A stretch of 64,000 nt of DNA from a virus (Duplodnaviria; Heunggongvirae; Uroviricota; Caudoviricetes). The number at the start of each line of letters is the position of its first letter. The first letter of the stretch is position 1. The notes below the pieces were generated by a model. It was not told the DNA's origin and searched no databases. It saw nothing but the letters and a program-made list of their open reading frames with translations. The translations under genes were made by a program, and so were the position numbers. Shown here piece after piece: positions 10,935 to 57,050 of the stretch. Location of the stretch: positions 27,011 to 91,010 of the IMG/VR virus record IMGVR_UViG_2563366895_000001; one strand, written 5' to 3'.

Positions 10935-10951
10935 ATATTTATTAGAGCAAT
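10935..10951 (-). promoter_or_regulatory. C1-repressor operator-like site (16/17) upstream of the uhr-hrdC-dmt block
   Basis: Plus strand ATATTTATTAGAGCAAT, one mismatch to the reverse-complemented consensus. Confidence 0.5.
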
Positions 10952-11032
10952 TTTGTAATAAGTAAACGCCATACAGACCACAAATAACCTAAGTTAAAAT
11001 AACGAAAATCAGAGCAAATAATTGGTGATGGC

Positions 11033-11317
11033 GTGGCAAGTATTGCAACAAAAGACAGCATTTGTTCGGGGCACGGAGGATTCCCATCCAGGCCTCCTGT
11101 AGAGAGTGAACCACTACTTAAAGTCAACGGAGTCGAAGTGTTAGTTGATGGTAAGCAATATGCACAGCATACCGATGGAAACAGTACGCACGGTGGGCAA
11201 GCTATATCAACCAGGGCATGGTTTACCGTCAATGGTAAAGGGATCGTATGCGTTGGTGACCCTGTTTCATGCGGATCTACCGTAGCGTCCGGAGACGGCC
11301 TGGTTCAGGTAAGTTAG
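11033..11317 (+). CDS. Small Gly/Cys-containing protein, possibly PAAR-like; GTG start
   Basis: CSGHGG...VCVGDPVSCGSTVASGDG pattern loosely like PAAR/DUF4280 spike-tip proteins; weak. Confidence 0.3.
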   Translation: MASIATKDSICSGHGGFPSRPPVESEPLLKVNGVEVLVDGKQYAQHTDGNSTHGGQAISTRAWFTVNGKGIVCVGDPVSCGSTVASGDGLVQVS

Positions 11318-11326
11318 GAGATATCA

Positions 11327-12114
11327 TGCTGGAAAAAGACTACCAGTTATCCGCATATAAAAAATTGGCCGCCGCCGGTGGGATGAAAACACCTGGTGCC
11401 ATAACATCGGCACGAAACAGTGCTAACACAGCAAAACTGCTTGCAGAAGAATTGACCGGATTAATTCTGGATACAATTGTCTATCCCGACACTATTACCA
11501 GCTATGTTTCAACGATCAGAACAACCACAACCGGCTTAACGAACATTGGAGAACTGGCAACTAAGCACGCGGACCTGTTGGCTGGTTATGCAGATCTGTC
11601 AATGCTGCTTCAACTCGATATTGGTTGGGATGTTTACTGCCGTGCTAATGAGCGAGAAGTTTCAGAACTGCCGATCTCTATTGCCATTGGTGATGTGAAT
11701 ATTACTAAATCGCTTGAGGACGCTGTTAACGCGCTTAATACATCAAGTTTAGTCGCTGCAATGGGGGAGATTAACCAGACCCTTAACACTGGCTCAGGAA
11801 GCTCGTCAGGCTCTGGTTCAGGCGGCGGCACTGCCACTCCCCCACCAGCACTAACAGAAGAGCAAATTGAATCTCTGAAAGTAGCAACTGAACAGTTTGG
11901 GGTTGTTTTCAACCAGACAACAGCGCCCACAACTGCGTTACAACAGCAGTATGAACGAGCGAATGAAAGCGCCAACGTAGCCATAACTGCTTATAACCAT
12001 GCTATCGGTACCGCGCTTGCGGAAGCATCAGCAAATAAGGCCAGCACAGCCAGCGCAGTTGCCGCTTTGGTTCCTGATTCTGTTCTTGATGAATTAAACA
12101 AAGCGGCACAGTAA
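11327..12114 (+). CDS. Hypothetical protein with Gly/Ser-rich linker
   Basis: ATG 11327 preceded by AGGAG; internal GSGSSSGSGSGGG linker. Confidence 0.4.
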
Positions 12115-12153
12115 CAAAGGACTTCATTGATAATTTTTCTTCAGGAGGAAGAC

Positions 12154-12576
12154 ATGTCATTCTTTTCTACGTTAAAAACAGCTTTGTCTTTGAAGGAGAA
12201 ACTTGCTGCTACTGGTGTTCTTGTTCTGATTTGCGCACTTGTTGGTGCTGGGTTTGCATGGGAACGTCATCAGCTAAAGCAAGCCATGGAGAAAATTGGC
12301 AGTCTTGATCAGGCTGTTAAGGAACGTGATAAGTCAATAATGGATCTTAACCAGACCATTGAGACGATGAACAAAGCAGAGCAACATTTTCACAGCCAGG
12401 AAGTGAAAAATGAATCAGAACAAGCCAAATATGCTGACAGGCAAATGGAACGAAAAGCTGAATTTCAGAAACAACTGGTTGCGGCGGGTAATGTTCGCCA
12501 GCGTATTCCTGCTGACACTCAGCGGTTGCTCCGGGAGTCGATCAGCGAATTTAACGCCGACGCCGACAAAGGTTAA
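12154..12576 (+). CDS. Putative i-spanin (Rz-like): N-terminal transmembrane helix plus periplasmic coiled coil
   Basis: ATG at 12154 (MSFFSTLK...); hydrophobic stretch ATGVLVLICALVGAGFAW; remainder rich in charged heptad-like sequence. Confidence 0.45.
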   Translation: MSFFSTLKTALSLKEKLAATGVLVLICALVGAGFAWERHQLKQAMEKIGSLDQAVKERDKSIMDLNQTIETMNKAEQHFHSQEVKNESEQAKYADRQMERKAEFQKQLVAAGNVRQRIPADTQRLLRESISEFNADADKG

Positions 12577-12742
12577 CCACCCTGACCCAAAAAGTGCATT
12601 TATGTGCAGGATGCCAGAGTTTAGCAGTGAATATTTTGATGATCTGCCAGCGTATATCCTCGATACAGAAACGATGCTGATGGGGATTAACAGGAAGAAT
12701 CGCAACGTTAATGATTACAACCGAGCTATTAGCGGTAACTAA
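12491..12742 (+). CDS. Putative o-spanin (Rz1-like lipoprotein) overlapping the 3' end of the i-spanin-like gene in another frame
   Basis: ATG at 12491; lipobox LTLSGC; short Pro-rich mature region (LTPTPTKVNHPDPK) with a Cys; overlaps 12154..12576 by 86 nt. Confidence 0.45.
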   Translation: MFASVFLLTLSGCSGSRSANLTPTPTKVNHPDPKSAFMCRMPEFSSEYFDDLPAYILDTETMLMGINRKNRNVNDYNRAISGN

Positions 12743-12753
12743 AAGGGATTTTT

Positions 12754-13146
12754 ATGTCTGATAAAGTAACAGTAAAGCAAACTATCAACAAAGCGACTTC
12801 AATCTACAAAATTGAGCAAATCACTGTTGGCAAGCCAGGATCTGAACAATACCGTCGTGCTTTCGAGCTTGCCGATCAGCTTGGTTTAAAACACCCGGAT
12901 TGCATTGAGCATGTATTTCCGACCTATGCTGATGAGCAATGTACTCATGTTCTTACCGAAGAGGATTTTTTCAGCACTGAAGAACGAGAAGGCGTTGATC
13001 GCTGTATTGGTGTGATTTGCTCTTCAGTGAGTTATGAGTTATTCCCTAATGTCCATGAAGATAGTGGTATTGGATACCAATTCCTGTACGAAGGCGATGA
13101 GCTTAAATGTTATGAACATGGTCTTCTCATCGAAAGCATAGAATAA
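12754..13146 (+). CDS. Hypothetical protein
   Basis: 130-aa ORF followed by a hairpin terminator. Confidence 0.4.
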   Translation: MSDKVTVKQTINKATSIYKIEQITVGKPGSEQYRRAFELADQLGLKHPDCIEHVFPTYADEQCTHVLTEEDFFSTEEREGVDRCIGVICSSVSYELFPNVHEDSGIGYQFLYEGDELKCYEHGLLIESIE

Positions 13147-13160
13147 TACAGCTTCCTTCC

Positions 13161-13184
13161 AACCGGCTTTGTTGGCCGGTTTTT
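13161..13184 (+). terminator. Rho-independent terminator-like hairpin
   Basis: AACCGGC-TTTGTTG-GCCGGTT followed by TTT. Confidence 0.5.
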
Positions 13185-26415: not shown

Positions 26416-27453
26416 TTAACCTATTGCTACTGGTTTTAACAAACCAGCATCAAGTAGCTTGCGAGTTAACCACTGCTGGCCTTTACCCGTTAATTGGGGC
26501 GTCAGCCGTATCTGGTAGCCATTTTCATCATCCAGCACCACTTCTTTCACCGTGAAATACCCGGCGTTAATGTACTGCTGGCGCGGTACGTTTTTGCGCG
26601 CACCAAAAGCCATGAGAATGCCGTTCTGGCGCAACCATGAGAAAAGGGCGTTTTGCTTAAGTCCAACGACCTTTGCAAAGTTCCCGATCAGGATTGCATT
26701 AGCCGCTGATACCCGGTCGGCAAAATCGACTTTAGGGGCTGCGGCCACCAGCTGTTGTTCCAACTGCATTTTCTGTTCTGCCAACTCGGCAGCCAGGCGT
26801 AGAGCGTCTGGTAATGTTTGGGGGATCGATGGCGCAGGGGAGTTTGCCTGCTGCAATTCTTCCAGTTTGTCGATCAGCGAACGGCGGACTGCTTTTGACT
26901 CGCGCGCGGCGACTCGCAGGGCTTGTTTGAAAGTCATGGTTATGACAAGCATTGATGTTTTGTTCATTTTTTCCACTACACTTTTTGTGTAGTGCTCACC
27001 ATCAAGCTCATCGAGTATTTTTTCGATGAATTTGTTGTTCCGAACCTCTGGTTCCCTACATAACTTACGCGCTTCATTGACCATCTTTAACAGTGTCAGG
27101 CTGTCGATTGTGTCTCCGGTGTTGGGGATGATATTCACGGCTGGTGCTGGCGTAGCTGAAGCAACAGGTGCTGGTTTTTCAACATTCAAATTATTACCGG
27201 TCATTCTGCGCGCCTCCTTTCTCATTTCTGCTGCCACTGTTGCGTAACGTAGACGTCCTTGTTCAATCAAATAATCCCTGATCTCGGCTATCAGTAGCCT
27301 GTTGATCACAGCCTTATCTGTTCGGGTATAAAAACGTCTGGTTATCATGAAATAGTTGGCAATTGCGCCGGGGATCTCCCGTGTCGGCATACAGGTTGTA
27401 TGCAAAGCGATCGCTTTGGCTATTTCATTACGGGTGACGAGAGGTTTTTTCAT
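26416..27453 (-). CDS. ant: Antirepressor Ant-like protein
   Basis: 345 aa; phage antirepressor-type C-terminal domain; preceded by icd-like ORF with ATGA-type overlap. Confidence 0.65.
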   Translation of the reverse strand: MKKPLVTRNEIAKAIALHTTCMPTREIPGAIANYFMITRRFYTRTDKAVINRLLIAEIRDYLIEQGRLRYATVAAEMRKEARRMTGNNLNVEKPAPVASATPAPAVNIIPNTGDTIDSLTLLKMVNEARKLCREPEVRNNKFIEKILDELDGEHYTKSVVEKMNKTSMLVITMTFKQALRVAARESKAVRRSLIDKLEELQQANSPAPSIPQTLPDALRLAAELAEQKMQLEQQLVAAAPKVDFADRVSAANAILIGNFAKVVGLKQNALFSWLRQNGILMAFGARKNVPRQQYINAGYFTVKEVVLDDENGYQIRLTPQLTGKGQQWLTRKLLDAGLLKPVAIG

Positions 27454-28283: not shown

Positions 28284-28805
28284 ATGATTCTTATGTCTAA
28301 AAAGTATACTTTATGCGCTCTTGTTGTATCTGCAATTCTTCTTTCTGGGTGTCAATCTAGCGGTGCTGATTATGCTGCCGATGTTTATGATACCGCTCAA
28401 TTGAATTCGAAGCAGGAAACAAAGACAGTCAATATTATCTCTGTGCTTCCAGCTAAAGTGAAAGTTGATAATAAAGCTAATAAAGAAGCGGCACAGACAT
28501 TTGGTGCGGTACTGGGAGCTGTTGCTGGGGGCGTTGCCGGTTATAATGTTAAAGGCACATCGACACTGGGTGCTGTAGCTGGCGGTACTGGTGGTGCGGC
28601 TCTTGGTGCAGCGGCTGGTTCTTTGGTTAGTGATAAAACAATTGTTGAAGGTGTTTCACTGACTTATAAAGAAGGAACTAAGGTGTTCACTTCAACTCAA
28701 GTTGGTAAAGCATGCCAGTTTACAACGGGGCTTGCTGTGCTTATTTCAACTAAAGATAATGAAACTCGAATTCAGCCAAATGCTACTTGTCCAGAAAAGA
28801 AATAA
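28284..28805 (+). CDS. Outer-membrane lipoprotein with glycine-zipper region (visibly AT-rich)
   Basis: Signal peptide with lipobox LLSGC; Gly-zipper GAVLGAVAGGVAGYNVKGTSTLGAVAGGTGGAALGAAAGS. Confidence 0.5.
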   Translation: MILMSKKYTLCALVVSAILLSGCQSSGADYAADVYDTAQLNSKQETKTVNIISVLPAKVKVDNKANKEAAQTFGAVLGAVAGGVAGYNVKGTSTLGAVAGGTGGAALGAAAGSLVSDKTIVEGVSLTYKEGTKVFTSTQVGKACQFTTGLAVLISTKDNETRIQPNATCPEKK

Positions 28806-28808
28806 TTT

Positions 28809-29348
28809 ATGAATAAAATTATTTTATTTCTAATCTTTTCTACGTTTAGTGTAGGCACTGCCTTGGCTAACTCGTTGCAAAGTCAAATTGCTGCTATTGC
28901 TCAAGCGGAAAATGAAGGGCGAGCTAAAGAGCAGCAAGCTGAGGATGCCAGAAAAGAACTTATTCGCCAACAAGCACAAGCTGAACGTATTAGAAGAGAA
29001 AAAGCAGCATCTGCCGCTGCTGCACGCGAAAAACAGCGTGTTGCTGCAGAAAATGAACGTAGAGCGAAACGAGAAGCCGAGCTAGCAAATGACAAGAAGC
29101 GAGATCAAGCTTATGAGGATGAGCTTCGCAAGCTGCAACTCGAAAGCATGAAACTCGAACTGCAAGCAAAAGCGGCTCGTGTCCAGCGAGAAAACGATTT
29201 TATAGAGCAGGAGTTGAAGGAGAGAGCAGCTAAGACAGATGTAATTCAGTCTGAGGCTGATGCAAATAGAAATATTTCTACAGGAAGTAAAGATTTACTG
29301 CAAAGCGAAGGAAAAGCTAGAGAGAAGAAAGCTAGCAGTTGGTGGTAG
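28809..29348 (+). CDS. Secreted coiled-coil protein
   Basis: N-terminal signal peptide (FSTFSVGTALA), then highly charged Ala/Glu/Arg/Lys-rich helix. Confidence 0.4.
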   Translation: MNKIILFLIFSTFSVGTALANSLQSQIAAIAQAENEGRAKEQQAEDARKELIRQQAQAERIRREKAASAAAAREKQRVAAENERRAKREAELANDKKRDQAYEDELRKLQLESMKLELQAKAARVQRENDFIEQELKERAAKTDVIQSEADANRNISTGSKDLLQSEGKAREKKASSWW

Positions 29349-41400: not shown

Positions 41401-42765
41401 ACTGGCAATGCTGCAACTGCAACAAAACTGCAAACAGCACGCACAATAGGCGGAGTGTCATTCGATGGTAGTGCCAATATCGACCTGCCGGGCGTGAATA
41501 AAGCAGGTAATCAGAGCACTACCGGTAATGCCGCAACCGCAACGAAACTTCAGACGGCCCGCACAATCGGCGGCGTGTCATTCGATGGCTCCGCCAATAT
41601 CAACCTGCCGGGTGTAAACATTGCTGGTAACCAGAACACGACCGGTAATGCAGCTACGGCTACCAAATTGCAAACAGCGCGTACCATTAATGGGGTTTCA
41701 TTTGACGGTTCTGCGAATATTTCACTGTCACCAGCAAATATTGGTTGCCCGGCATCTCCTACTGGTTGGTTAACAACAGGTAATAACGGTGAGTCAATAA
41801 CGACAGCCCAGTTAGTTACTTTGTTGCAAAATAACGGGGCATTCAATACGAAAGCATGGATCGCTCGTTGTGCATGGGCGTATGCGAATAGTGCATCCAT
41901 ACCAGACAGTGAAACTGGTTGTGGCATTATTCCACTGGCGGGTGCTGTGATAGAAGTATTCAGCAATAATACCAACAATTACACCATTCGAATAACAACG
42001 GCCACTACGACAAATGTCTCTGGTGCACTCACTAATGCGGAGTTTATCTATGTGTCTAATGGCTCAAGTTATTCACCTGGATGGCGCAGAGCGTATAACA
42101 CTAAAAATAAACCTACTACTGCTGACCTTGGCCTGAGCGATGCAAGTGGATACGTTGGACGCCTTGTAAACACTCGAATTTTCACTTCATCAGGTACGTA
42201 CACCCCGACACCAGGAACTAAACGAATCAGGGTCACAATTACGGGCGGCGGTGGCGGAGGGGGTGGCTGCCAGGCTACATCCAATAACGAAACGTTTTTC
42301 GGTGCAGGCGGTGGGGCCGGCGGGACAGTAATTGTCACGCTGACCCTGACGAAGGATAGTTATCCTGTCACTATCGGCGCAGGTGGGGGCGGCGGTGTTG
42401 GTGCGACGAACGGCCTCAAGGGCGGTGATAGCTCGTTCGGAACGGTAATAGCCCCTGGCGGTGAAGGCGGCGGGAAAGTAGGAGTCACAAACACGAACGG
42501 TGGTAATGGAGGCGCGCCGAATACTGGTGATGTCCGCATTATTGGTGGGCATGGAGGAGACGGTCAGTCCGGAAATATCAGCGTCAGTGGTGAAGGGGGA
42601 TCATCGTTCTGGGGGGGCGGTGGTCGCGCAGGCGCTGGCGGTGGCGTTATCGGTCGGGCATATGGTTCGGGCGGCGGTGGTGCATACGATGCCGGTTATA
42701 GCGGAACCAGTATGACGGGCGGGAAAGGCGCTGCAGGGATTTGTATTATCGAGGAGTTTGCATAA
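38461..42765 (+). CDS. S: Tail fibre protein with tandem fibre repeats and Gly-rich C-terminal domain
   Basis: Start taken at ATG 38461 after AAGGA (listed ORF begins upstream in the same frame); three ~60-aa repeats (TGTPTAPTAAQSTNSTQIANTAFV...); at least seven ~32-aa repeats (GNQNTTGNAATATKLQTARTIGGVSFDGSANI.LPGVN); poly-Gly-rich C-terminus. Confidence 0.8.
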   Translation: MNDVTVVTSVTYPSPESLALVADVQYHEPYLSAALNRKFRGIVDPGFYAGFFPKPGGGMNLLITSVDGDKTAGAASVNIGEFYQVTIQQRKDISLALSAGKKYAIVLKGRYLLGEDTYQVNTASHIHAAEFVARTYTDSYQLGDGELLVCTVNIPAGVSAITQEMIDVSDRIDLTIGIEISDSVTSTRSDVAASSLAVKKTYDLAKSKYTAQDASTTQKGLVQLSSATNSDSETMAATPKAVKSVKELADTKAPIESPELTGTPTAPTAAQSTNSTQIANTAFVKAAITALINGAPGALDTLKEIAAAINNDPNFSTTINNALALKAPLASPALTGIPTAPTAAQGTNNTQIATTAYVRAAISALVGSSPEALDTLNELAAALGNDPNFATTMTNALAGKQPLDATLTALAGLTTGANKLPYFTGTDTVSQTDLTSVGRDILAKTSTLAVIQYLGLREIGTSGEKIPLLSTANTWSARQTFNGGITGALTGNADTATKLKTARTIGGVAFDGTANINLPGVNVAGNQNTSGNAATATKLQTARTINGVSFDGSKNIELTPRSIGTINSTTMSFIGGAGWFKLATVTMPQASSVVYISLIGSSGYNVNSPMQAGISELVLRAGNGNPKGLTGALWRRTSVGFTNFAWVNTSGDTYDVYVEIGNYATGVNIQWDYTSNASVTIHTSPNYTVDKPTGLTDGTVYVIYSSHIKPTATDVGALPITGGNLNGGLTATGEIISKSANGLRIAYGNYGFFIRNDGSNTYFMLTDSGNSLGTYNSLRPLIINNANGTVTIGNGLNVTGGINGSLNGNASTATKLQKARNINGVQFDGSADISIPTITSRGRVTALTGTTQGDAAGLQMYEAYNNGYPTAYGNILHLKGATSRGEGELLIGWSATSGAHAPILIRSRRDNTDAAWSEWAQVYTSKDSIPGVNTTGNQNTTGNAASATKLQTARTIGGVSFNGTANIDLPGVNKTGNQSTTGNAATATKLQTARTIGGVSFDGSANIDLPGVNKAGNQSTTGNAATATKLQTARTIGGVSFDGSANINLPGVNIAGNQNTTGNAATATKLQTARTINGVSFDGSANISLSPANIGCPASPTGWLTTGNNGESITTAQLVTLLQNNGAFNTKAWIARCAWAYANSASIPDSETGCGIIPLAGAVIEVFSNNTNNYTIRITTATTTNVSGALTNAEFIYVSNGSSYSPGWRRAYNTKNKPTTADLGLSDASGYVGRLVNTRIFTSSGTYTPTPGTKRIRVTITGGGGGGGGCQATSNNETFFGAGGGAGGTVIVTLTLTKDSYPVTIGAGGGGGVGATNGLKGGDSSFGTVIAPGGEGGGKVGVTNTNGGNGGAPNTGDVRIIGGHGGDGQSGNISVSGEGGSSFWGGGGRAGAGGGVIGRAYGSGGGGAYDAGYSGTSMTGGKGAAGICIIEEFA
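41245..41725 (+). repeat. Four tandem 96-bp coding repeats inside the tail fibre gene
   Basis: Four consecutive 32-aa units of the GNQ.TTGNAA.ATKLQTARTIGGVSF.G.ANI.LPGVN type. Confidence 0.6.
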
Positions 42766-43175
42766 TGAATACATCATATGCAGTTATTGAAAATGGGATG
42801 GTTGTGAATGTCATTGTCTGGGATGGCGAGGCTGAATTCACAGTGCCGGATAATCAGCAGCTCATTAATATTTCTGATATCAGTGAGCAGCCCGGAATCG
42901 GCTGGGTGTATTCAGACGGGGGATTTACTGCACCACCCACTCCGGAACGTTCTCATGATGAACTGGTAGCTGACGCTGAACAGAAAAAACAGTCGCTGAT
43001 TGATACCGCAATGGCTTCCATTAGTCTTATTCAACTGAAATTACAGGCCGGGCGGAATCTTACGCAGGCTGAAACCACCCGTCTTAACGCTGTGTTGGAT
43101 TATATCAATGCGGTGACCGCAACGGATACCAGCACTGCACCAGATGTCAATTTTCCAGCGTTCCCGGAGGCGTAG
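42765..43175 (+). CDS. U: Tail fibre assembly chaperone (Tfa, P1 U-like)
   Basis: ATG overlaps the fibre stop (TAATG) after GAGGAG; 136 aa; typical Tfa size and position. Confidence 0.55.
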   Translation: MNTSYAVIENGMVVNVIVWDGEAEFTVPDNQQLINISDISEQPGIGWVYSDGGFTAPPTPERSHDELVADAEQKKQSLIDTAMASISLIQLKLQAGRNLTQAETTRLNAVLDYINAVTATDTSTAPDVNFPAFPEA

Positions 43176-43214
43176 CCCATTTAAAAAAATATTTGGAGCG
43201 CTGGAAGTAACGAC

Positions 43215-43467
43215 TGGTTCCAGTGCATCCTGATAAGATGATTACTGTTCATGCTTCAAGAGCGAGCGCATACTGCATCCAAGCCAATCTAACTTTCATT
43301 CGACCAGAGTGTCACCTCTCAAAAGCATTTTTTAACTCTGGTCGTTCAGCCTTTTTGCCGCTCGCCTTGTCCTCAAAAATTAGCTCACATCCTGCGCTTT
43401 CAAGAGCATTTCGTTGTAAAGCAGTGTTTTGTTCATTTGTTGATACGCGTACATAGCCTATTAGCAT
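43215..43467 (-). pseudogene. cin: Truncated, decayed cin-like serine invertase gene
   Basis: Minus-strand hand translation from ATG 43467: MLIGYVRVSTNEQNTALQRNALESAGCELIFEDKASGKKAERPELKNAFER then stop; downstream in other frames GDTLVE and KLDWLGCSMRSLLKHEQ; matches the Cin/Hin/Gin N-terminus; the rest of the gene is absent. Confidence 0.6.
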
Positions 43468-43594: not shown

Positions 43595-43876
43595 ATGTTT
43601 GATTTCACAATAATGCTCCTCTCCATCCTTGGCGGGGTGCATTCGTTTCTGAATGGGGTTCGTGAAAAACGTTACGAAGCGTCATGCAGGCAATTGATGG
43701 CCGAGTGTATTGCTGCCGTACTTGCAGGCTTTATAGGCATGTATTTCGCGGAATATAAGGGTATGGATGAAAGTCTTCAGAATTGCGTGACTATTATTTG
43801 CAGCATCAATAACAGGCTCATTCTTGAAAAGTCACAAAGGATTATCGATTCGTACCTCAATAGAAATGCCTCTTAA
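43595..43876 (+). CDS. lydC: LydA-like holin paralogue (P1 lydC position)
   Basis: 93 aa, visibly homologous to the downstream LydA-like ORF (LLSILGGVHSFLNGVRE vs LLSVIGGIGTFLMDVRD). Confidence 0.45.
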   Translation: MFDFTIMLLSILGGVHSFLNGVREKRYEASCRQLMAECIAAVLAGFIGMYFAEYKGMDESLQNCVTIICSINNRLILEKSQRIIDSYLNRNAS

Positions 43877-43943
43877 GCAAGAAATGACCGGTTGAGAAGT
43901 TACTTTGCATACCATTACCTCCTGACAACGTAGGAGGGAACTT

Positions 43944-44273
43944 GTGCTTGACACACAGGAATTAGCTCCAGTTGCTATTGCGCTCCTGCTTTCAGTAATT
44001 GGTGGGATAGGCACGTTCCTGATGGATGTCCGAGACGGTCGCCAGTCTGGCAATTTGTTGGGATTGGTTACGGAGATCTTTGTTGCAGTGACAGCTGGCG
44101 CGGTGGCGTACCTATTGGGGCAACACGAGGGCTGGGAGTTATCAATTACGTACTTAATGGTAACGATAGCCAGCAATAACGGTCATGAGGTGATTTCAGG
44201 GATGAAACGAGTGAATATCGATAGCATTCTGAATGTTCTTACAAGTTTGGTGAAAAAGGGAGGCGGGAAATGA
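43944..44273 (+). CDS. lydA: Holin (P1 LydA-like)
   Basis: 109 aa, hydrophobic segments, first gene of the darA-type operon. Confidence 0.5.
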   Translation: MLDTQELAPVAIALLLSVIGGIGTFLMDVRDGRQSGNLLGLVTEIFVAVTAGAVAYLLGQHEGWELSITYLMVTIASNNGHEVISGMKRVNIDSILNVLTSLVKKGGGK

Positions 44274-44713
44274 TTGGCTGGGGTGTATGCGTTCTTGCGT
44301 TAGCCTTAGCCGATCGCTATTTGCTAAAACGCAAGGACATCACGCATTTAGAACTTGGTTATGTGGAAATTAAACCGGGTTTCATCCGGGTGCCGTTCAA
44401 GTACCGGTCTAAATTCCCGTTTTTGCGCGGCGCAACGGTCAGATATTGGATCCGCGATGTTCAGAAGCCGACGACTGTGATTGAAGGCGAACAACGTTGT
44501 CTGACGTCGGCTGAACAGGGCGAAAACAGTGAATGGTTGTACATACCCACTGAATATATGGGTAAAGGAGAGCGACTGTGGCATTTCAACGTCATGGTTA
44601 CGCATGGCGACTCGTTCATTAACCCGTTGTATCGGATTTTCCCTGTTACTCAGCAAATCCGCAGAAGTTACGTAATAAATCTCGCACAGGATGTGTCAGA
44701 TGACGAAAAATAA
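44270..44713 (+). CDS. lydB: Antiholin-like protein (P1 LydB position)
   Basis: 147 aa, ATGA-type overlap with lydA. Confidence 0.4.
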   Translation: MIGWGVCVLALALADRYLLKRKDITHLELGYVEIKPGFIRVPFKYRSKFPFLRGATVRYWIRDVQKPTTVIEGEQRCLTSAEQGENSEWLYIPTEYMGKGERLWHFNVMVTHGDSFINPLYRIFPVTQQIRRSYVINLAQDVSDDEK

Positions 44714-51598: not shown

Positions 51599-51777
51599 GA
51601 GGCTTCCAAGCAAATATCATGACAAGCATAAAGTGTTAAAGTAATGTTACGCATCTTAACAAAGTGACTCTTGATTAATTTTAATTCGCCCTATCTTGCT
51701 TGTCTAACCATCATTGCATATACAGAGGGCAAAGAATTACACTTCATGTAATTTATTTCCCTTTAATTTCGTATTAT

Positions 51778-53338: not shown

Positions 53339-53470
53339 AATGTATATCTTTGAAACGTAGCTAACAAGTGATTTGCATTATCCTGTGTCTTCTAAAGGGA
53401 TCGAGTCAGTCGGTATTGGCTGTGAATGGGTGTTTGTCCTGGAGCGTAAAAATTCGCTTATGAGGTCTTT

Positions 53471-54028
53471 ATGAAGGGAAAAACAGCCGCAGGAGGCGGT
53501 GCAATTTGCGCTATCGCGGTGATGATTACCATCGTGATGGGTAATGGCAATGTGCGAACCAACCAGGCGGGGCTTGAGCTTATCGGAAACGCTGAAGGTT
53601 GCCGACGTGATCCATACATGTGCCCGGCGGGTGTATGGACTGACGGGATTGGTAATACACACGGGGTAACGCCAGGCGTGCGAAAAAACGACCAACAAAT
53701 CGCCGCTGATTGGGAAAAGAATATCCTGATCGCTGAACGCTGTATTAACCAGCACTTCCGGGGCAAAGACATGCCCGATAATGCCTTCAGCGCAATGACA
53801 AGCGCGGCATTCAATATGGGATGCAATAGCTTACGGACCTACTACAGCAAAGCGCGAGGCATGCGAGTCGAAACGTCCATCCACAAGTGGGCGCAGAAAG
53901 GGGAATGGGTGAATATGTGTAACCATCTCCCTGATTTTGTGAACAGTAACGGCGTGCCCCTGCGAGGTTTAAAGATTCGCCGTGAAAAAGAACGCCAGCT
54001 TTGCCTGACGGGACTGGTCAATGAATAA
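53471..54028 (+). CDS. lyz: SAR-type endolysin (T4-lysozyme family; P1 Lyz-like, 185 aa)
   Basis: N-terminal weakly hydrophobic Gly/Ala-rich SAR-like segment (AAGGGAICAIAVMITIVMGNG) followed by lysozyme-like region. Confidence 0.75.
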   Translation: MKGKTAAGGGAICAIAVMITIVMGNGNVRTNQAGLELIGNAEGCRRDPYMCPAGVWTDGIGNTHGVTPGVRKNDQQIAADWEKNILIAERCINQHFRGKDMPDNAFSAMTSAAFNMGCNSLRTYYSKARGMRVETSIHKWAQKGEWVNMCNHLPDFVNSNGVPLRGLKIRREKERQLCLTGLVNE

Positions 54029-54275
54029 ACTCCGGCAGCTCCGCAGACTTTCGACAATGAAGTTATCGCTGGCAGCGATAGTTTTCGACTCGATTTTCAT
54101 GGCGGTATATGTGCTTAATGAAACGTGGCCACTGGAACCGCTATTGTATGCCGGGCTTCGGCTGTGCCTGACATTTTTGAGCATGGCTGCGAGATTGATG
54201 CAGCAGAAAGAAACCGCTTCAGATTGTCCACGCCGCGCGGTGCGCAAATATATGGCACGCAGGCGAAAGCGATAA
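54021..54275 (+). CDS. Small membrane protein downstream of lyz (possible lysis accessory)
   Basis: Two hydrophobic segments and a basic C-terminus (RKYMARRRKR). Confidence 0.3.
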   Translation: MNKLRQLRRLSTMKLSLAAIVFDSIFMAVYVLNETWPLEPLLYAGLRLCLTFLSMAARLMQQKETASDCPRRAVRKYMARRRKR

Positions 54276-54286
54276 TAGTTAACGAT

Positions 54287-54314
54287 AACCCCGGCAGCCG
54301 CCGGGGTTATTTTT
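54287..54314 (+). terminator. Rho-independent terminator between the lyz block and the convergent pro gene
   Basis: AACCCCGGC-AGCC-GCCGGGGTT followed by ATTTTT. Confidence 0.6.
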
Positions 54315-54319
54315 GGTGG

Positions 54320-57050
<2,731 letters not shown>

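Follow-up and report, generated by a model that had tools for sequence, protein, structure and literature searches.

An overlapped spanin gene pair, predicted from sequence, at a distance from the holin and endolysin genes of a P1-like phage-plasmid

Introduction

The Rz/Rz1 pair of phage lambda is the prototype spanin system, with its function shown by experiment, and LysB/LysC of phage P2 is the prototype of the overlapped gene architecture; in P2 a single cassette carries the spanin genes after those for holin and endolysin (Kongari 2018, Fig. 1; PMC6139136). The closest described system to the one considered here is the ppfA/mlp gene pair of phage P1. We describe the ppfA/mlp pair at positions 12154–12742 of a stretch of viral DNA of 64,000 nucleotides (positions 27,011 to 91,010 of IMG/VR record IMGVR_UViG_2563366895_000001), which is referred to throughout as the window. 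The window belongs to a P1-like phage-plasmid, in which ppfA and mlp, judged by their sequence, very probably act as an overlapped two-component spanin encoded at a distance from the genes for holin and endolysin.

The P1 pair has been listed and discussed previously. Table S1 of Kongari 2018 (PMC6139136) enters P1 (NC_005856.1) as 'ovl', with gp064 as the i-spanin, gp063 as the o-spanin, and the family designated 'P1'; gp064 is given as 140 aa with 104 periplasmic residues and no periplasmic Cys, and gp063 as 110 aa, composed of a 39-residue signal and 71 mature residues, with one periplasmic Cys. Bednarek 2022 (PMC9025707) describes the P1 spanin genes ppfA and mlp as partly overlapping and located in another, unlinked operon, and regards the scattered layout of the lysis genes as an atypical, conserved trait of P1 and P7. 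The same paper (PMC9025707) labels ppfA the o-spanin and mlp the i-spanin; the sequences point to the opposite assignment. Both the spanin prediction and the scattering of the P1 lysis genes are therefore already known from the literature of 2007, 2018 and 2022, and the pair is already named Rz/Rz1 in several GenBank records. The additions made here are small: a reading of published RNA-seq data as late kinetics, a late-promoter-like box ahead of ppfA, and a Mlp pre-sequence whose length is conserved at 38–40 aa.

Identity of the window and of the gene pair

The window is about 97% identical in nucleotide sequence to P1 and P7, with full synteny, and is oriented in reverse relative to NC_005856. 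A 12-kb piece of it matches 812 records when compared with enterobacterial plasmids, with a top identity of 99.1%, and the 3.2 kb around ppfA/mlp are 96.5–97.5% identical to P1 and P7 across their full length. The P1 gene order dmt-hrdC-uhr / upfC-upfB-ppfA-mlp-upfA-oriR-repA-parA-parB is present and, from the listing of open reading frames (ORFs) and reading of the sequence, the region 12154–12742 corresponds exactly to P1 ppfA (140 aa) plus mlp (110 aa). By near-identity and synteny with gp064/gp063, the two products are members of the P1 PpfA/Mlp family.

DNA was compared with that of seven relatives, five of which have 58–63% PpfA identity (Cronobacter phage JK004 and elements from Salmonella, Klebsiella and Cronobacter) and two of which are distant (P0078 and P0083). 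The order upfC-upfB-ppfA-mlp-upfA is identical in all of them.

PpfA, the predicted i-spanin

The ppfA gene (12154–12576, plus strand) codes for a predicted i-spanin of 140 aa, and is preceded on the same strand by a Shine-Dalgarno sequence, AGGAGG, at 12143–12148, which is also marked in Kongari 2018 Table S1 (PMC6139136). The assignment draws on the Kongari 2018 listing, on the match to P1 PpfA (98.6% identity), and on a match to phrog_89, 'Rz-like spanin' (E 1.9e-25).

A first-pass annotation of this DNA, made from the letters alone, had described a protein with one N-terminal transmembrane (TM) helix and a long periplasmic coiled coil. The single helix is borne out: residues 17–35 (LAATGVLVLICALVGAGFA; nt 12202–12258) are the best 19-aa Kyte-Doolittle window, with a mean of 2.35, and a scan of the whole protein with the same scale finds no second hydrophobic segment. 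The flank on the N-terminal side is net positive and residues 1–16 form the predicted cytoplasmic N-terminus, giving the type II inner-membrane topology with a single N-terminal TM domain that is expected of an i-spanin. An AlphaFold2 model computed from a 17-sequence alignment, of moderate confidence (mean pLDDT 68.6), places the TM segment within a helix of residues 13–110, which is followed by a linker (111–119) and a second helix (120–137); a helical periplasmic domain of two helices and a linker is likewise an i-spanin feature. The description as a long coiled coil stands for roughly the N-terminal half of the periplasmic helix, where an a/d heptad pattern extends over residues 48–75 with seven of eight core positions hydrophobic, a pattern reached by 3 of 2000 shuffled sequences; the remainder of the helix is predicted to be helical and has no clear heptad.

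Mlp, the predicted o-spanin, and its start codon

The mlp gene (12410–12742, plus strand) lies in the +1 frame relative to ppfA and codes for a predicted o-spanin precursor of 110 aa, which is 97.3% identical to P1 Mlp, appears in the Kongari 2018 listing, and matches phrog_30284, 'Rz-like spanin', over its full length (E 1.4e-76). The first-pass reading of a lipoprotein with a lipobox agrees with what we find, in that residues L37-S38-G39-C40 (nt 12518–12529) form a lipobox with Ser, not Asp, at the +2 position, as in an o-spanin with an outer-membrane lipoprotein signal. Prediction of a signal peptidase II site, which had been proposed as a check, also gives a consistent answer, with LipoP placing the site at position 39 of P1 Mlp (Kongari 2018 Table S1, PMC6139136). 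The mature part was likewise described as Pro-rich with a Cys; the Cys is present, as C66 (nt 12605–12607), the one further Cys of mature Mlp, and the Pro-rich character is confined to the start of the mature part, with four of the six Pro in its 71 residues lying within the first 25. Any periplasmic Cys for intermolecular disulfides is thus contributed by Mlp C66 and not by PpfA.

When started at ATG 12410, Mlp has a pre-sequence of 39 aa. A ribosome-binding site for this ATG, AGGAAG, is found at 12398–12403 (plus strand), and the equivalent position is AGGAGG in the five relatives with 58–63% PpfA identity; across the six closer sequences the ATG is preceded by AGGAGG, with AGGAAG in the window and in P1. 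An ATG is present 38–40 codons ahead of the lipobox Cys in all eight Mlp homologues (alignment columns 1–42), and the residues between are kept in length, unconserved in sequence, and basic throughout. The internal start candidates weighed were ATG 12431, TTG 12479 and ATG 12491. The in-frame TTG at 12479–12481 (plus strand) would yield a canonical 16-aa signal; this codon is ATG in four relatives and AGG in JK004, and no Shine-Dalgarno sequence precedes it. ATG 12491 would give a 12-aa signal without charge and is missing in the relatives. The upstream ATG is the sole mlp start common to all family members, and we tentatively favour the long form from ATG 12410 over the internal starts.

Public database entries often give mlp as a shortened ORF of 46–52 aa that lacks a signal peptide, or have no call for it, and such truncated or missing calls are seen in L002 (2403–2543), L090 (4449–4589) and L092 (4431–4589). 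The RefSeq record of P1 names mlp as 'Rz-like spanin' and leaves ppfA as 'PpfA'. The practical value of analysing ppfA/mlp lies in such annotation fixes in P1-like records.

Conservation and dual coding of the overlap

As the first-pass annotation had noted, mlp starts inside the 3' end of ppfA in a different frame. The two genes share 167 nt (12410–12576, plus strand), and mlp extends 166 nt beyond the ppfA stop, a gene arrangement that places the pair in the overlapped spanin class. With this arrangement, every feature of the overlapped two-component architecture proposed in that annotation that can be examined in silico is present, by the criteria of Summer et al. 2007 and Kongari 2018. A +1-frame ORF of 109–111 aa from its first ATG overlaps the 3' end of the ppfA homologue in all seven relatives, with Mlp identity ranging from 35 to 67%. 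The lipobox conforms to L-[SN]-[GAS]-C in all eight family members, neither the lipobox Cys nor the second Cys varies among the eight Mlp sequences, and the Mlp alignment has a conserved C-terminal motif, MC..P.F....DL..Y..D..T.L..N.KN..N.YN.

Codon-position identity was computed between the window and the five relatives. In the mlp-only part downstream of ppfA, identities at mlp codon positions 1, 2 and 3 are 0.82, 0.86 and 0.53, indicative of purifying selection in the mlp frame. Within the overlap, from mlp codon 24 onward, the values are 0.84, 0.79 and 0.88, indicative of constraint on both frames, and for mlp codons 1–23 they are 0.82, 0.39 and 0.78, indicative of constraint on ppfA only; the ppfA wobble position coincides with mlp codon position 2, and it varies freely in these 23 codons. 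Identity at the ppfA wobble position is 0.45 outside of the overlap and rises to about 0.8 once the hydrophobic (h-) region of the Mlp signal begins, and dual-frame constraint is detectable from about 12479 on, its onset coinciding with the start of the signal-peptide hydrophobic core. Because the codon-position identities reveal both mlp-frame and dual-frame constraint, we regard mlp on this comparative evidence as a real gene and not a chance ORF.

No members of the PpfA/Mlp family outside of P1-like elements were found in a search of 5.8 billion proteins and an exhaustive HMMER profile search, in which the matches past P0078 and P0083 are generic coiled-coil proteins. Searching a phage collection with tblastn yields only P1-like phages and Cronobacter phage JK004. 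A scan of viral contigs with PpfA gives 80 loci that are all 96–99% identical, and these are of no use for covariation; a scan of genome contigs with the alignment gives just three loci, also near-identical.

Lysis genes at three loci

Placement of the other lysis genes by tblastn with P1 proteins agrees with the first-pass view that the pair is far from the holin and lysozyme genes and that lysis functions occupy at least three loci. In addition to ppfA/mlp, a second locus contains lydC (43595–43876), the lydA holin gene (43944–44273) and the lydB antiholin gene (44270–44713), all on the plus strand, with the late promoter LPdar at 43897–43915. A third locus contains lyz (53471–54028), coding for a signal-arrest-release (SAR) endolysin, lydD (54021–54275) and lydE (54125–54340), also on the plus strand, with the late promoter LPlyz at 53366–53384. 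Some 31 kb separate the ppfA/mlp pair from the holin locus and some 41 kb from the endolysin locus, as in P1.

A six-frame scan of the 64-kb window for lipoprotein signals returns mlp and one unrelated lipoprotein (28284–28805) only. The latter was rejected as an o-spanin or u-spanin candidate, as it has no C-terminal TM domain and no type II partner protein.

Transcription of the ppfA/mlp operon and late-promoter-like boxes

The genes upfC (11033–11317), coding for a PAAR-like protein, and upfB (11269–12114), both assigned from the ORF list and P1 matches, lie upstream in the ppfA/mlp transcription unit, and upfA (12754–13146) is the last gene of the upfC-upfB-ppfA-mlp-upfA unit; all are on the plus strand. 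A terminator-like hairpin (13161–13181) is located 3' of upfA.

Timing was read from published P1vir RNA-seq data, expressed as log fold change (logFC) in the wild-type host at 10 and 30 min (PMC8201110, Table S1). Between these times logFC increases from 4.86 to 10.63 for upfC, 4.12 to 11.07 for upfB, 5.57 to 11.25 for ppfA, 4.15 to 10.53 for mlp, and 5.21 to 11.24 for upfA (PMC8201110). The late genes behave similarly, with lyz increasing from 6.05 to 11.35, lydA from 5.21 to 11.77, and gene 23 from 5.44 to 12.07, whereas the divergent early genes uhr, hrdC and dmt are already at 8.6–9.4 at 10 min and reach 11.1–12.0 at 30 min (PMC8201110). Because its values match those of lyz and lydA and not those of uhr, hrdC and dmt, the ppfA/mlp operon mRNA has late-gene kinetics, unlike its early neighbours.

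The only ppfA promoters annotated in NC_005856 are predicted sigma-70 promoters. A 19-nt position weight matrix (PWM) was built from six annotated P1 late promoters, which themselves score 16.9–22.8 bits. At a threshold of at least 12 bits the PWM identifies 11 of 127,962 window positions, eight of which reach at least 14 bits; four of these eight fall on the window equivalents of LPsit, LPs, LPdar and LPlyz, one has the LPpro sequence, and two lie just upstream of late genes. Two lower-scoring late-promoter-like boxes are found in the ppfA/mlp operon, both on the plus strand. One, AAAGGACTT-CATT-GATAAT (12116–12134; 10.6 bits), ends 20 nt upstream of the ppfA ATG, and the other, AAATAACCT-AAGT-TAAAAT (10982–11000; 12.5 bits), precedes upfC by 33 nt. 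NC_005856 has no annotation for either box. The ppfA box is degenerate in P1 and the window (10.6 bits), and the homologous site in the relatives scores 18.1 (AAGTGACTT-CCCG-GAGAAT), 17.4, 15.4, 11.8 and 9.3 bits, the top three of which are within or near the range of the training promoters. At the position of the upfC box the TANNNT hexamer is kept in the relatives, and this box, judged by its pattern and position, is the likely operon start.

We note that the ppfA box, of the AAGTGACTT-N4-TANNNT type, is near-consensus at 15–18 bits in relatives L089, L091 and L090 (3964–3982 in each). Positions 10936–10952, between the divergent uhr and upfC genes, contain the C1 operator Odmt (Op68; the reverse complement of ATTGCTCTAATAAAT), and no other element of that intergenic region is as well conserved across diverged relatives.

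From the box pattern, its conservation and the mRNA kinetics, we infer that upfC-upfB-ppfA-mlp-upfA is transcribed late from Lpa-type promoters. A two-part proposal may be put forward tentatively and with somewhat less than even confidence: an unannotated Lpa-type late promoter in the 39-bp upfB–ppfA spacer, with a second possibly upstream of upfC, may tie the unlinked spanin unit to the lysis programme, and, separately, the o-spanin may use ATG 12410, giving a 38–40 aa pre-sequence with a long basic n-region that could slow or tune export and maturation. The late-promoter-like box, together with the late RNA-seq kinetics, offers a concrete and testable answer to how a distant spanin operon is timed.

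Proposed mechanism and alternative roles

The gene pair with its sequence traits, conservation and dual coding, and the late mRNA kinetics taken from published data, are shown directly; lipidation and localisation of Mlp, assembly of a complex, fusion of the membranes and use of the late-promoter-like boxes are all inferred, and can be arranged as follows. PpfA would insert in the inner membrane by its single N-terminal helix, N-in/C-out, and reach into the periplasm with a helical, partly coiled-coil domain of about 100 residues. Mlp would be translated from the +1 frame in the 3' end of ppfA, exported, lipidated at Cys40 and cut by signal peptidase II and, because its +2 residue is Ser, would be sorted by Lol to the outer membrane. 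A Mlp–Mlp disulfide would probably form through the invariant C66, PpfA having no periplasmic Cys for the same purpose. The two proteins would meet across the periplasm and be kept apart by the peptidoglycan meshwork until, late in infection, the LydA holin triggers and the SAR endolysin Lyz degrades the wall. After loss of the wall the PpfA–Mlp complexes would be free to collapse and to bring about fusion of the inner membrane with the outer one, thereby removing the last barrier to release. Late, Lpa-type transcription of upfC-upfB-ppfA-mlp-upfA would explain the co-timing with the unlinked lyz and lydAB genes.

Several observations weigh against a spanin role. No Rz or Rz1 model is found in a Pfam scan of PpfA and Mlp at E<=1, in which sub-threshold coiled-coil noise and a weak LPAM_1 match are the only results. 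With BLASTP, PpfA has no meaningful homology to lambda Rz (E 0.23), and the match of Mlp to lambda Rz1 (E 0.005) is limited to the signal and the Pro-rich stretch. The sole NCBIfam match for the pair, between PpfA residues 22–96 and the P2 LysB model TIGR03495 (E 0.0011), scores 19.3 bits, and because the cutoff is 92.75, PpfA is not a member of the P2 LysB family. The periplasmic part of PpfA has no Cys, and SpaninDB flags the 39-aa signal of P1 Mlp as 'Too long signal sequence' and records no PROSITE hit for it (PMC6139136). In Bednarek 2022 (PMC9025707) the P1 assignment is presented as a prediction from features of the genes, with Summer et al. 2007 cited for it. In a genome-wide CRISPR interference (CRISPRi) analysis on plates, the efficiency of plating was 1.3/1.2 for ppfA and 0.24/0.19 for mlp, and both were scored as non-essential (PMC10695390). 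Lastly, the family is confined to P1-like elements and is always in the same non-lysis context beside the PAAR-like gene; therefore, the gene neighbourhood provides no independent support.

Alternatively, PpfA and Mlp would be envelope proteins with a role other than lysis, P1 disrupting the outer membrane by some other means; such a role might lie in superinfection exclusion, in lysogenic conversion by the plasmid prophage, or in the tail or injection apparatus (in an operon with the PAAR-like UpfC). The constant placement of the pair in the upfC-upfB-ppfA-mlp-upfA block beside the plasmid replicon and never beside an endolysin gene fits such a role, as do the sigma-70-only promoter annotation of ppfA in NC_005856, the CRISPRi result (PMC10695390), and the lack of curated homology to proven spanins; moreover, no spanin could be identified in 91 of the 677 phages of one survey (PMC6139136). 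We nonetheless consider a non-lysis role unlikely. The mRNA kinetics are of the late class, neither prophage-like nor early (PMC8201110), dispensability on plates and in shaken culture is typical of spanins (PMC9025707), and the 64-kb window holds no other spanin candidate. Moreover, a type II coiled-coil protein with a +1-overlapped outer-membrane lipoprotein is a specific spanin signature, and it is kept down to about 30% identity. A further reading, in which only ppfA is real and mlp is a chance or non-functional ORF, could draw on the many records that omit mlp or call the truncated 46–52 aa ORF, and on the first 23 mlp codons, where amino-acid-level constraint is missing (position 2 identity of 0.39). 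However, the mlp-frame identities of 0.82/0.86/0.53 downstream of ppfA reflect purifying selection, the ppfA wobble identity climbs just where the signal h-region starts, both Cys are invariant down to 35% identity, and the ATG with its upstream AGGAGG or AGGAAG is found in the six closer sequences. The conservation analysis effectively refutes this reading, to which we attach only a very slight probability. The overlapped two-component spanin is accordingly the reading that we prefer, and its residual testable details are the late-promoter box, the long Mlp pre-sequence, and an i-spanin that has no periplasmic Cys.

Other features of the window

The UpfC protein matches the NCBIfam model T6SS_PAAR_dom below its cutoff (E 4.5e-9), and the P1 annotation carries a note on its resemblance to T4 gp5.4. 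If UpfC is a tail-spike tip protein, such a protein would share a transcription unit with lysis genes.

The lipoprotein at 28284–28805 (173 aa) is located in the variable sim region and resembles TraT and glycine-zipper models only weakly, below the cutoffs. A gene 3' of it (28809–29348) codes for a secreted, highly charged coiled-coil DUF5384 protein of 179 aa, and the pair (28284–29348) looks like cargo that replaces or supplements P1 simC/B/A.

The cin and invertible C-segment region (window positions of about 39965–43328) can be aligned to NC_005856 only in part. P1 positions 31799–36337 have no megablast match in the window, and Cin identity falls beyond residue 49. The IS1 copy of P1 (22626–23393) is absent from the window (51723–51731).

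Comparison with known spanin systems

The P1 ppfA/mlp genes (gp064/gp063; SpaninDB family 'P1'; Summer et al. 2007; Kongari 2018) are the same pair as described here, with the same flanking genes, the same 167-nt +1 overlap, and the same distance from lyz and lydAB. Relative to P1, PpfA differs at two of 140 residues (I45M and V104F) and Mlp at three of 110 (S7N, K18N and A59D), and these allelic substitutions spare the TM domain, the lipobox and both Cys residues.

The likeness to lambda Rz/Rz1 is one of organization. As with the lambda proteins, the pair consists of a predicted type II inner-membrane protein with a helix-linker-helix periplasmic domain and a +1-frame outer-membrane lipoprotein and, like Rz1, Mlp has Ser/Thr rather than Asp at +2, a Pro-rich mature start, and one mature Cys. 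The differences are that Rz1 is wholly embedded in Rz whereas mlp reaches past the end of ppfA by 166 nt, that PpfA lacks periplasmic Cys, of which lambda Rz has two, and that mature Mlp is 71 aa in length compared with 40 aa for Rz1. The lambda genes are part of an S-R-Rz lysis cassette, whereas distances of 31 and 41 kb separate ppfA/mlp from the genes for holin and endolysin, respectively. PpfA and Mlp fall outside of the lambda Rz/Rz1 families as defined by Pfam Rz/Rz1 and by PHROGs, in which lambda Rz/Rz1 are phrog_13/phrog_3198 and PpfA/Mlp are phrog_89/phrog_30284. With P2 LysB/LysC, ppfA/mlp share the overlapped gene arrangement. Judged by sequence, the relationship of ppfA/mlp to these characterised spanins is one of functional analogy without family membership.

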